DNA of 64,000 nucleotides from an uncultured Gemmatimonadales bacterium (GCA_963708135.1 OY970192.1:960001-1024000), one strand, 5' to 3'. Shown: positions 53,834-57,632, counted from the stretch's first letter. Program-made: numbers and translations. Notes: a model not told the origin generated them from the sequence alone.

Positions 53834-55038
53834 TACCGCGCCACAGTGGTCATGATGCGTAAAGGCGGTGGAGCTTGGATCGCGCATCGGAGACAGTGAA
53901 ACGCCAGGTGGTGGGAGCTCGGACGGCGTTGCGGGGGGTCTCCCAGGCGAGGGTCTCGGCCCGCAGCCGGTTGACGTTGTCAAGGCGGCGGTGCAGGCAC
54001 TGGCGACCGAGGATCGAGATCTCGATTTCGGCCATGTTGAGCCAGCTCCCGTGCTTGGGCGTGTAATGGAACTCGAGCTTGCGCAGGATACGGCGCGCTT
54101 CGGCGGCCTCGAAGGTCTCGTACAGGGCTGCGCCCGTGTGGCTGCTCAGGTTGTCGAGCACGACGCGGATCTTGTCGGCGTCCGCGCAATGCACGTCGAC
54201 CAGTGCGCGCATCTGCTGGGCGAAGTCCGCATTCGTGCGACGGGCGGTGACGTCCACATGCCGCCAGCCTCGCAGCGGCTCCACGAGCAGGAAGAGGTTG
54301 GCGGTCCCGCGGCGCACGTACTCGTAGTCAACGCGTTGGCGCCGACCCGGAGCGGCCGGCACCGGCAGGCGGGTTTCCCCGATGAGCTGGTAGGGCACTT
54401 CATCGAAGCACACCACCGGGCGCCGGGGGTCGTAGGGCTCCTGGTAGAGGTCGAGCACGTCCTCCATGCGGCAGACGAAGTCCCAACTCACCGTCGGGAT
54501 GCACCACGCTTCCTTCTGCCAGGGCTTCAGGTCGTTTTTTTTAGAAGCCGTCGGACCGTCTCGTCCGTGATCGCGTCCACCACACGCAACTCGATCAGCT
54601 TGTCGGCCAGGAGCTGCATGGTCCAGCGCACGCGCCCCTCCGGAGGCGCGCTGCACGCCAGCGCGACCAGGAAGGCTTCCTGCTTGCCGTCCAGCAGCCG
54701 GGCTTTGCCCGGCCGAGGCCGATCGTTGAGCGCCCGCTCCAAACCGCCCTCGACGAAGCGCAGCCGCGTGCGCTCCACCGTGCACTTCCCCAGGTGCAGC
54801 GCGGCCGCAATCGCCTTGTCGGTCACGCCCTCGTCGGCCAGCAACAGGATGCGCGCGCGGTTCACCCGGCGCACCCGCGCCTTGCCGCCCTGGAGCAGGC
54901 GCTTGAGTTCGGCCCGCTCGTCGTCCGTGAGGTCCACGATATACTTCTTGGCCATCTGCCCTCCTCGCTGGGGGTCCGACAAATGGGCCAACAATATAGC
55001 ACGGAACTTTAGTCCTCACAATCATGATGGCTGAGTAC
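53833..55038 (-). mobile_element. IS630-family insertion sequence (1206 bp)
   Basis: TA duplicated at 53831-53832 and 55039-55040; imperfect terminal IRs GTACCGCGCCACAGTGGTCATGA and GTACTCAGCCATCATGATTGTGA; lower GC than flanks. Confidence 0.93.
53850..54955 (-). CDS. IS630 transposase in two frames (HTH orfA 54527-54955, DDE orfB) joined by a -1 frameshift
   Basis: orfA RARILLL...RWT..LLA; orfB VCFDE, VLDNL, YTPKHGSWLNMAEIE; A8 run at 54535-54542. Confidence 0.92.
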
Positions 55039-55094
55039 TAGTGGCGCCGGATCCCGTCCGCTAGCCACCGGGCATCCCCAACGGAGGAGACAGC

Positions 55095-55547
55095 ATGGAG
55101 GAACGCCAGAGCGCCCGGGAGGGCATCCGCGATGGGATCCGCGCCGGGATCGGGATCCTCGCCGCCTTCAAGGATGCCGTGGAGGAGACCCTGGGTGAGA
55201 TGAAGGAGCGCGGCGACATCTCGCCCGATCGCGCGCGCGAGGCGGTCCGCACCACGATGCAGCGGGCGCAGGAGGCGATGGACGAGGCTCGCGAGCGGCT
55301 CGATTTCGTGCCGCGTCGCGAGTTCGATGTGCTGCGCCAGGAGGTGGCGGAGCTGCGCCGCCGGCTCGAGGCCCACACCGGCGGCGCAGCGGAAACCGAG
55401 GCGACGGATGCAGCCGCGAGCGCGGCCCGAGCGCCGCACGCCCGTGCGCCCGACACGCCGCCCGCGAACGGTCCGGCCGCCGGGGCCGGCGAGGCGGCCG
55501 TGAGCACGCCTCCGAACATCCAGGTCGAGGAGGACACCACGGGGTGA
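55095..55547 (+). CDS. Phasin/UbiK-like helical hypothetical protein
   Basis: GGAGGA RBS; ERGDIS, LDFVPRREFDVLR..V.EL; low-complexity tail. Confidence 0.6.
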   Translation: MEERQSAREGIRDGIRAGIGILAAFKDAVEETLGEMKERGDISPDRAREAVRTTMQRAQEAMDEARERLDFVPRREFDVLRQEVAELRRRLEAHTGGAAETEATDAAASAARAPHARAPDTPPANGPAAGAGEAAVSTPPNIQVEEDTTG

Positions 55548-56305
55548 GCGCGCCCCGTGCCGTGAGCGAGGTGAGCTGTCCGGGTGAGCTGCCGCTGTAC
55601 GTGCACCCGGAATGGCACGAGCGCTTCCCCTGGCTGGTGCAGGGCACGACGGGGCGGGGAGAGGGGGCGGAACCGTTCGACCTGCGCATGTTCGGCGACA
55701 TCCCGTCGGGCCTGCTGCTGGAGCGCTGGGCCGCGCTCCAGCGCGCGCTCGGCTGTGCGCGCGCCGTTCACGCGCACCAGGTCCACGGCGCGCGCGTACT
55801 GGTTCACCAGGGCGGGCCGGCCGGGCTGCTCATCGCCGAGGGCTGCGACGGCCACGCCACGCAGACCGCCGGCGTGCTCCTCACCGTTTCCGTGGCCGAC
55901 TGCGTTCCCATCTTCCTGGTGGACCCCGAGCGGCGGGCGATCGCGGCGCTGCACGGCGGGTGGCGCGGCGTCGCGGCCGGCATTCTCGAGTCCGGCATCG
56001 AGGCGCTCGGGCGCCAGGCGGGTACGCCGCCGGCGGATCTGTACGCCCATTTCGGGCCGGCGATCTGCGGCGCCTGCTACGAGGTCGGGCCGGAGGTCTT
56101 TCGGGCGCTGGGGCTTGCTGCGCCGCGGGGCCTGGCGTCCGTGGATCTGCGCCGTGCGCTCGCGGAGCGCGCCGTCGCCGCCGGCCTCGAGGCGGAGCGG
56201 CTCACCATCTCCAGCTTCTGCACCCGCTGCGGCGACACCCCGTTCTTCTCGCACCGCGGAGGGTGCCCGGAGCGGCAGATGGGCGTTCTCGGCCTGCGGC
56301 CATGA
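55544..56305 (+). CDS. pgeF: YfiH/PgeF (polyphenol oxidase/laccase-domain) family protein
   Basis: HQVHG, ADCVPI, LHGGWRG, GPAICGACYEVG, CT.C...FFSHR. Confidence 0.92.
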   Translation: MSAPRAVSEVSCPGELPLYVHPEWHERFPWLVQGTTGRGEGAEPFDLRMFGDIPSGLLLERWAALQRALGCARAVHAHQVHGARVLVHQGGPAGLLIAEGCDGHATQTAGVLLTVSVADCVPIFLVDPERRAIAALHGGWRGVAAGILESGIEALGRQAGTPPADLYAHFGPAICGACYEVGPEVFRALGLAAPRGLASVDLRRALAERAVAAGLEAERLTISSFCTRCGDTPFFSHRGGCPERQMGVLGLRP

Positions 56306-56520
56306 GCGGTGAGGCGCCACCGGGCCTGTGCGGCTCGTGCGTGCACGCGCGCGTGATCGAAACCCGGCGCGGCTCCCGGTTCTACCATTGCCGCCTCTCG
56401 CTGCACGATCCACACTACCCGCGTTATCCCAGACTGCCCGTGCTGCGGTGCGCGGGCTACCAGTTACCTGCGGGTGGCGGGGCAATGCCCCCGGCCGCCA
56501 GGGAGGATCCCCATGAGTGA
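56302..56520 (+). CDS. Small Cys-rich hypothetical protein (72 aa)
   Basis: GLCGSCVHAR...RGSRFYHC...YPRYPRLPVLRCAGY; overlaps both neighbours. Confidence 0.75.
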   Translation: MSGEAPPGLCGSCVHARVIETRRGSRFYHCRLSLHDPHYPRYPRLPVLRCAGYQLPAGGGAMPPAAREDPHE

Positions 56521-56977
56521 GCCCTTCTACACCGCCCGCGCCAGCATCGCCAAGCTCGGCGGCACCCACAGGCGCGCCCGCCTGGAGTCCGGCGCCACGG
56601 TCGAGTTCGGCGTGCACGGTGCCGTCAAGCGCCACTTCGGGCTGGAGGACCAGCCCGACCTGCCGCTTCCCGTCGATTTCATCGTGGCTGCCACCGGCGC
56701 CTGAATGCTGGGGACCCTCAATGGCGCGCTGGAGGCGCGCGGGATCAGGCTCGAGCCGGATGCGATCGCGGCCGGGGTGGAGGGAACCAACGAGCTGCTC
56801 GAGGGGATCATCACGCTCACGCGGATCCACGTGCACTACACGCTGCGGATCCCGGCGGGCACGCGCGAGGCCACGGATCGGGCGCTCTCGCGTCACCAGG
56901 AGAAGTGCCCGACCGCGCACAGTCTACGCCGCGCCGTGGCCATCGACTGGAGCGCGGACGTGGTCGAGGCGGGCTGA
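56513..56977 (+). CDS. OsmC/Ohr-family protein, probable selenoprotein (TGA at 56702-56704 read as Sec64)
   Basis: The two ORF-track fragments are in frame and separated only by TGA: PVDFIVAATGA-U-MLGT...EKCPT. Confidence 0.82.
56712..56746 (+). promoter_or_regulatory. Candidate bacterial SECIS hairpin
   Basis: GCGCGC-UGGAG-GCGCGC stem-loop with the loop 26 nt after UGA; lower CCC/GGG pairs. Confidence 0.55.
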
Positions 56978-57041
56978 GGCAGGCGAGCGCGCAGACGGTT
57001 GCCAGGCGGTCGTTTGCGGCGTACGCAACGGGTCCGGTGGG

Positions 57042-57070
57042 TTGCCTGCGGCCGACCGGAGTGTTATAAT
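57042..57070 (+). promoter_or_regulatory. Sigma-70 promoter of the rimP-nusA-infB operon
   Basis: TTGCCT-17 bp-TATAAT with extended -10 TGn. Confidence 0.8.
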
Positions 57071-57101
57071 TTGCACTGTCGGCGTTGGACCGCCGGCCGA
57101 T

Positions 57102-57132
57102 GAAGTGGGGGACGGACCCCCACTTTTTTATT
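57102..57132 (+). promoter_or_regulatory. rimP leader terminator-like hairpin
   Basis: AAGTGGGGG-acgga-CCCCCACTT followed by TTTTATT, just upstream of rimP. Confidence 0.8.
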
Positions 57133-57143
57133 CGCCTGGAGCC

Positions 57144-57632
57144 ATGTCGCACGATTCGCTCGAACCGCGCATAGAGGCCCGCGTCGCGACGCTGGGCTTC
57201 GAGCTCGTGGAGCTCGAGCGGGCGGGCTCACGGACGAGACCCGTCCTGCGAATCCGGATCGACAGGCCGGACGCTGAGCCGGGCCACGGCATCACCCTGG
57301 AGGACTGCGCCGGCGTCAGTCGGGCGCTCGAATCCTTCCTCGAGGAGGATGAGGCGCTCGGCGCGAGATACGTGCTGGAGGTTTCCTCGCCGGGGCTCGA
57401 GCGGCCGCTCGTGCGCAAGCGCGACTTCGAACGCTTTGCCGGCCGGGAAGTGGCCCTCAAGGGCTACGCGCCGCTGGCGGGCCGGAGCCGCCGGCTCGAG
57501 GGCGAGCTGCTGGGATTGGAGGGAGAAGGCGAGGCGGCGCGGGTGCGCCTGCGCCTGGATGACGGAGAGACCGTGAGCGTGCCGAGGGGCGAGATCGCCC
57601 GCGCGCACCTCATCTTTCGGTGGGATCGCTAG
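57144..57632 (+). CDS. rimP: Ribosome maturation factor RimP
   Basis: ITLEDCAGVSR, YVLEVSSPGLERPL. Confidence 0.96.
   Translation: MSHDSLEPRIEARVATLGFELVELERAGSRTRPVLRIRIDRPDAEPGHGITLEDCAGVSRALESFLEEDEALGARYVLEVSSPGLERPLVRKRDFERFAGREVALKGYAPLAGRSRRLEGELLGLEGEGEAARVRLRLDDGETVSVPRGEIARAHLIFRWDR

Follow-up and report, generated by a model that had tools for sequence, protein, structure and literature searches.

An 'OsmC-like protein' family of selenoproteins was described in 2005 from the Sargasso Sea metagenome, where three sequences were assigned to COG1765 (YhfA) and tabulated with the motif UxxT (PMC1088965, Zhang, Fomenko and Gladyshev). The family is listed again in reviews of 2022 (PMC9312934) and 2026 (PMC13188914), and the passages of these three papers that deal with it present it as a predicted thiol-dependent redox protein. 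Those passages name neither Gemmatimonadota, Eisenbacteria nor Acidobacteriota, the first having been looked for in the two reviews and the last in PMC9312934. The titles and abstracts listed on Gemmatimonadota selenoproteins and on OsmC selenocysteine selenoproteomes hold no description of the branch considered here; supplements of the catalogues might list it. The original prediction for the locus, made from its sequence, had counted OsmC-like selenoproteins as a known class, and the 2005 publication bears this out. The locus is thus not a new kind of system, OsmC-like selenoproteins having been catalogued since that year.

The gene lies in a window of 64,000 nucleotides, i.e., the whole stretch of DNA analysed, from an uncultured Gemmatimonadales bacterium (GCA_963708135.1 OY970192.1:960001-1024000), the genome of which is a single contig of 5.45 Mb. 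Two open reading frames in the same frame, 56474-56704 (76 aa) and 56705-56977 (90 aa), are separated by one TGA. Translation from the ATG at 56513 with TGA read as selenocysteine (U) gives 154 residues, U being residue 64 (TGA 56702-56704). The frame ends with a TGA of its own (56975-56977), and an ATG stands immediately 3' of the internal TGA. The only Cys of the protein is C132 (TGC 56906-56908), directly followed by Pro. Both the ORF listing and the read-through translation agree with the original prediction, which had described one frame of 154 aa split by a single TGA, with TGA at residue 64 and C132 as the sole Cys. The coordinates of the gene and of the features around it are collected in Table 1.

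Table 1. Features of the predicted selenoprotein gene and its surroundings (positions in the window)
Feature	Position	Strand	Basis and remarks
DDE_3 superfamily transposase (PF13358)	53850-55025	-	E 7e-27; about 500 nt 5' of the three-gene cluster
Cu-oxidase_4 (PF02578) domain gene	55544..56305	+	Pfam E 1.7e-46; start and stop codons checked
72-aa Cys-rich ORF, CxxC-x16-C-x19-C	56302..56520	+	8-nt overlap with the start of the selenoprotein gene
Shine-Dalgarno-like AGGGAGG	56500..56506	+	6 nt 5' of ATG 56513; read from sequence
Predicted selenoprotein gene, OsmC/Ohr fold, complete	56513..56977	+	154 codons and TGA stop; read-through translation, Pfam, model, Foldseek
UGA as selenocysteine, residue 64, peroxidatic position (predicted)	56702..56704	+	alignment to the Cys of Ohr/OsmC; conserved column
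Predicted bSECIS hairpin within the CDS	56724..56740	+	stem 56724-56729 with 56735-56740; apical loop UGGAG 56730-56734
C132-P133 codons, resolving Cys-Pro motif (predicted)	56906..56911	+	invariant in both alignments; aligned with the C-P of Ohr/OsmC
Promoter-like site TTGCCT-17-TATAAT, 10/12 consensus	57042-57134 region, 5' of the terminator-like hairpin	+	1 found against 0.0 expected
Terminator-like hairpin (10 bp) and T-run	57102..57134	+	125 nt 3' of the gene stop; 1 site against 0.5 expected from shuffles

The read-through protein matches the Pfam family OsmC (PF02566) over residues 50-146 with 48.2 bits, against a gathering cut-off of 27.5, and this match crosses the UGA. U64 aligns with the Cys of Ohr 1n2f and OsmC 1ukk, and C132-P133 with their Cys-Pro. 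Column 64 is occupied by Cys or Sec in 30 of the 31 rows of the alignment, in which C132 and P133 are invariant. In both clades of relatives described below, R20, G33-V34-H35, D55, G67-T68, R76, Y109, R123, H128 and C132-P133 do not vary. From their offsets and from what is known of Ohr, we take R20 and D55 to be the counterparts of the catalytic Arg and Glu of that enzyme. An AlphaFold2 model based on the 31-row alignment has a mean pLDDT of 97.0 and a pTM of 0.89, and a Foldseek search with it retrieved 66 PDB chains at E <= 0.001. The 26 rows listed of these 66 are all Ohr, OsmC, OsmC-like or unnamed structural-genomics entries. Among them, the best matches are 6eb4 (OhrB), 2onf, 1ml8, 1ukk and 1qwi (OsmC), and the best superpositions are those on 2onf (TM 0.79/0.86) and 1ml8 (0.70/0.80), which surpass those on canonical Ohr and OsmC; identity in the rows listed is only 11-22%. 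The entry 1ml8 is presumably E. coli YhfA. The names given to homologs by JGI are mixed, including both 'uncharacterized OsmC-like protein' and 'organic hydroperoxide reductase OsmC/OhrA'. Segment 56513-56977 of the window is a single OsmC-fold gene of 154 codons. By analogy with Ohr and OsmC, its product would be a thiol/selenol peroxidase, and the peroxidase activity, the substrate and the reductant are all attributed to it on that basis.

The internal TGA is shared with a large set of relatives. A protein search returned 1026 matches at E <= 0.001; among the 120 matches listed, 17 span the whole protein (152-174 aa), and the other 103, of 88-102 aa, are limited to the part after the TGA, including the 90-aa call of this genome itself (P0009). 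That the ATG following the TGA would lead gene callers to split the gene had been anticipated, and these short calls are what such splitting yields. Column 64 of the 17 full-length homologs listed is Cys in 16 cases and Trp in one. In a sample of 201 genomes of the phylum, all 74 matches at E <= 2.1e-19 contain an in-frame TGA (73 contain one and 1 contains two); they are spread over 48 genomes, and the relatives are matched over their full length (residues 1-153). Fifteen weaker matches correspond to ordinary OsmC paralogs, 12 of them with no stop. As the Pfam OsmC match spans the TGA and the same in-frame TGA is found in 74 of 74 strong matches of the phylum, the split frame is not a product of chance.

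The strong matches fall into an ortholog group of 39 places, 50-63% identical to the window protein (own locus counted), and a distant group of 35 places, 34-44% identical to it. All 30 ortholog loci aligned have their TGA in this one column, as do 19 of 20 loci of the distant group, the remaining one (L053) being unmatched by the motif. When contigs of species-representative genomes were scanned with an alignment of Cys forms only, 75 loci were obtained, of which 69 could be classified and 6 were unmatched by the motif. The classifiable loci carry TGA in 68 cases and TGC in one, and according to record titles the TGA loci span Gemmatimonadota, Candidatus Eisenbacteria and Acidobacteriota. Within the class of the one Cys-form genome, TGA is found in 28 of 29 matches. 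Altogether, after removal of duplicates, 127 distinct TGA-bearing sequences were gathered, together with 16 Cys forms and 1 Trp form. The points that the original prediction had entrusted to homologs come out in its favor: 16 of the 17 full-length homologs and the structures 1n2f and 1ukk place Cys at the column; relatives nearly always carry TGA there, not a sense codon; and the protein is conserved on both sides of the TGA across the 127 sequences, which come from several phyla.

Some members of this set deserve separate mention. The distant group forms a second clade (loci L044-L063), which agrees with the orthologs in the column of the TGA and in the hairpin and its offset, and which is often encoded beside an ortholog in one genome; the search of the 201-genome sample found no copy of it in the genome of the window. 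One distant-group match (G064:C1:1968268-1968732) contains two in-frame TGA codons. The Trp form (P0014) is a metagenomic sequence with a long C-terminal tail, and it is the sister of a TGA-bearing locus in the tree presented below.

The genome is equipped for selenocysteine insertion, as the original prediction implied. Indeed, selA (573 bits), selB (319.5 bits, rising to 343.9 when its C-terminal piece is added) and selD (382.5 bits) all score above curated cut-offs, and one tRNA-SeC (selC) was detected, with anticodon tca. The selD gene (L010, G000:C1:4174852-4175766, minus strand) itself includes one in-frame TGA, at HGAGU-ACK, and an 8-bp hairpin begins 10 nt after this UGA. In the phylum sample, selA is present in 159 of 201 genomes, and a comparison of the lists by eye places all 48 genomes with strong TGA matches among them; this co-occurrence is weak evidence, consistent with the reading and no more, because selA is so frequent in the sample and genomes related to one another do not count as independent. 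The tally of 159 of 201 for selA takes in the unpublished genomes G157 and G057, and that of 59 of 201 in the match search of the same sample takes in the unpublished genome G097; no particular claim depends on these three. Outside the phylum, the TGA-bearing genome G348, for which completeness is not given, had no match to selA.

A different reading is that the UGA is decoded as one of the standard residues (Trp, Cys or Arg), whether through a near-cognate tRNA or a reassigned code; the Trp of P0014 at this column speaks for it. This reading is very improbable, however. TGA is the commonest stop of the genome (it closes 2402 of the 3634 open frames that reach 500 codons) and also terminates nusA, infB and the window gene itself; because it is still the commonest stop, a genome-wide reassignment is excluded. 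The only tRNA with a tca anticodon reported for the genome is tRNA-SeC, the Sec machinery is complete, the UGA of selD falls at its known Sec site, and the hairpin that follows the UGA of the window gene fits the rules of SECIS elements of the SelB type.

This hairpin lies within the coding sequence, 25 nt 3' of the UGA, and consists of a stem of 6 bp (7 bp with a U-G closing pair) and the loop UGGAG. The constraints on bacterial SECIS elements, as given in the part of the 2026 review that treats them, are a loop of 3-9 nt, a stem of 4-16 bp, a G within the first two loop positions, a spacing of 16-37 nt and an MFE <= -7.5 kcal/mol (PMC13188914), and the window hairpin lies within each of these. 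Folded alone, it has an MFE of -12.8 kcal/mol, and 3 of 200 shuffles are as stable; the 25-nt core has a z of -2.59 against shuffles. Single-sequence folding of wider flanks does not exceed the stability of shuffles (86 nt, z +1.05; 49 nt, z -0.50), so that the case for the hairpin rests on comparative data. In the 127 distinct sequences, pairing holds in 99.1% of the 762 cells of the stem; with the 3' partner slid, the figure falls to 4.9-66%. Three of the six stem pairs vary on both sides (GC108/GU12/CG6; CG115/UA8/GU2/GC1; AU77/GC43/GU5), and the covariation score observed was reached by 0 of 500 shuffles. This covariation couples a synonymous change on one arm with an amino-acid change on the other, as in Ala GCA-Val GUG versus Ala GCG-Ala GCG. 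The loop starts with UGG in 124 of the 127 sequences.

Part of this conservation acts at the protein level, since the hairpin encodes the conserved residues G-A-L-E-V/A-R. Synonymous codon diversity was measured as an internal control in 109 distinct orthologs. At position +9 after the UGA, Leu is encoded by CTG in 107 of 109 (entropy 0.13 bits); at five further conserved Leu positions, 4-6 codons occur, with 1.4-2.0 bits. Val +11 is GTG in 82 of 83 sequences, Gly +7 is GGC in 90 of 103, and Ala +8 is chiefly GCA (76 of 104), a codon rare at other Ala positions. The freezing of synonymous sites is limited to codons +7 to +13.

For Cys forms, the control at the DNA level amounts to one locus (L064), which pairs at 6 of 6 positions and has the loop UCGAG. 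A few TGA-bearing loci depart from the common element: the loop is UCGCC in L080 and L083 and UGAAG in L085, and L044, a distant-group locus that keeps the TGA, has no equivalent hairpin at this offset. These four loci may use a shifted or a different element. A search of Rfam over 56400-57400 at E <= 1 matched no SECIS family and gave only a chance microRNA match on the minus strand. A degenerate DNA pattern for the Cys motif, run over metagenome contigs, returned 119 loci, none of them relatives of OsmC; the heptapeptide of the motif recurs there in unrelated, mostly membrane-type proteins.

Taken together, these data favor, with a probability of about 0.9, one gene for a 154-residue OsmC-fold protein in which UGA would be recoded as selenocysteine at residue 64 through a SECIS element, the incorporation of selenium being deduced from sequence. 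The proposal of the original prediction that the TGA encodes selenocysteine, forming a Sec/Cys pair with C132, thus draws support from the alignment to a Cys column, the conserved TGA, the covarying SECIS and the Sec machinery. A split gene has also to be considered, in which translation would stop at UGA 56702 and restart at AUG 56705 to give pieces of 63 and 90 residues, perhaps assembling non-covalently. The short calls that dominate the protein matches listed, that of this genome included, have the form of the second piece, and an ATG directly follows the TGA in the window gene and in 78 of the 127 distinct relatives. The other 49, however, have CTG, CTA or CTC after the TGA, i.e., no common start codon. 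In addition, the break falls exactly on the column of the catalytic Cys, so that a split would remove the active-site residue, the hairpin is under RNA-level constraint at the right distance from the UGA, and none of the 16 Cys-form relatives is interrupted, each being a single chain, all of which makes a split gene very improbable. A pseudogene or sequencing error, i.e., a lone nonsense change in an OsmC gene of the usual Cys type, has the bare presence of a stop codon in its favor and nothing further, and it is already refuted by the comparative data, namely the same TGA in 127 distinct sequences of several phyla with the protein conserved on both sides and R20, G33-V34-H35 and D55 invariant in the N-terminal part.

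If the UGA is recoded as selenocysteine, the ribosome would reach it while SelB carrying Sec-tRNA(Sec) binds the hairpin, and selenocysteine would be inserted in place of termination. Sec64, on the long central helix, would then take the peroxidatic role: in analogy to Ohr and OsmC, the selenolate would attack the hydroperoxide and become a selenenic acid. The C132 of the invariant Cys-Pro would resolve this selenenic acid by forming an intramolecular selenenylsulfide, which a dithiol reductant would then reduce.

The relationship between Sec and Cys forms was considered on a rapid maximum-likelihood tree. Its 144 rows comprise 127 Sec forms (108 from the ortholog group and 19 from the distant one) in addition to 16 Cys forms and the Trp form; it was calculated on 141 columns with the Sec/Cys column masked and rooted on the distant group, which splits off at an SH-aLRT of 99. 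The Cys label requires 6 changes on this tree, of which at least 3 are forced by starred branches, and each Cys group is nested among Sec rows. The number of Sec/Cys events is approximate, as the columns are few and 72 of the 141 inner branches are unresolved. The nesting of Cys forms in Sec clades points, by parsimony, to Sec as the ancestral and Cys as the derived state, and Sec thus looks ancestral in this OsmC branch. Loss of the Sec trait does not explain the change to Cys in G201, the one Cys-form genome, where selA is present.

A further-reaching proposal, to which we give somewhat less than even odds, is that the lineage is ancestrally and almost obligately selenium-dependent, with two old sister clades and with Sec ancestors that gave rise to the rare Cys forms on several occasions. 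What suggests it is the contrast between 127 distinct TGA sequences and one TGC locus, together with the fact that clades only 34-44% identical have the same Sec column and a SECIS embedded in the coding sequence. If it is true, the chemistry of the enzyme would specifically need selenium, perhaps on account of the substrate or to withstand over-oxidation, and the natural Sec-to-Cys revertants would offer a ready comparison for the role of this element.

The window gene is the last of three overlapping genes on the plus strand, the overlaps being of 4 and 8 nt. It is preceded by the 72-aa Cys-rich ORF, whose ATG overlaps the stop of the Cu-oxidase_4 gene (ATGA). This small ORF has no Pfam or NCBIfam family, and its nearest Atlas clusters are unnamed proteins of 61-68 aa (score 0.95). 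Among 132 related loci, 29 have a similar small ORF as the immediate 5' neighbor in the same orientation; the 72-aa ORF is a possible operon partner of the selenoprotein gene, and it could be a zinc-ribbon-like one. Two other open frames were rejected. The 302-aa ORF 55612-56520, considered as the upstream gene, has 230 first residues rich in Arg, Gly, Ala and Pro that look off-frame, the genuine genes in that stretch being the Cu-oxidase_4 gene and the 72-aa ORF. The antisense ORF 55061-56920 (619 aa), which has no Pfam family, is regarded as spurious, the genome being high in GC. On the 3' side, rimP, nusA and infB follow, and the terminator-like hairpin ends about 10 nt 5' of the rimP start (57144). 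Region 57042-57134, in which Rfam finds nothing, may act as leader or attenuator for the rimP-nusA-infB operon, or else give a short RNA, and the hairpin at 57102-57134 could equally be merely the terminator of the upstream operon.

In public databases the branch appears as truncated proteins of about 90 aa, as do most of the matches listed, and NCBI labels the C-terminal halves (89-101 aa) of several relatives among them 'OsmC family protein'. As a consequence of these truncated records, protein catalogues lack the catalytic residue and the N-terminal third, and too few selenoproteins are counted for Gemmatimonadota, Eisenbacteria and Acidobacteriota. A profile permitting U at column 64 would mend hundreds of records. 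A family that is almost wholly Sec with few Cys forms is unusual, and this one would be a reasonable system in which to study the benefit of selenium in an OsmC-fold peroxidase.

Among known proteins, the Ohr and OsmC thiol peroxidases (1n2f, 6eb4, 1ukk, 1qwi) share with the window protein the fold, a peroxidatic residue on the central helix and a Cys-Pro about 68 residues later, whereas their peroxidatic Cys is replaced by a predicted Sec. TIGR03562, the model of the OsmC subfamily proper, gives the window protein 17.3 bits, against a cut-off of 85.8. The model nearest to it in kind is NCBIfam NF041052, 'OsmC-related (seleno)protein', which allows Sec and is the best or near-best NCBIfam match, over residues 49-145. 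Ten relatives from both clades and other phyla were scored on this model, eight of them giving 16.5-33.7 bits and two having no match at E <= 0.01, and the distant clade too lies below every NCBIfam cut-off for the relatives scored. With scores so far under the cut-off, the branch is not a member of NF041052 by the curated threshold.

The OsmC-like family of 2005, as tabulated in its paper (PMC1088965), has in common with the window protein the OsmC fold (PF02566), a predicted UGA-encoded Sec and a bacterial SECIS downstream. Compared by the tabulated motif, that family has UxxT, whereas the window protein has U-M-L-G-T, with Thr at +4; the spacing of U-(M/L)-L-G-T is constant in all relatives aligned, which therefore do not show UxxT. 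The original prediction had left it undecided whether the subfamily was already characterised, and the answer is divided: the class was published in 2005, and this branch falls outside the curated NF041052 model (21.5 bits for the window protein against a cut-off of 95). From its sequence, the protein thus appears to work like the known OsmC-like selenoproteins, yet by the available tests it stands outside the curated family.
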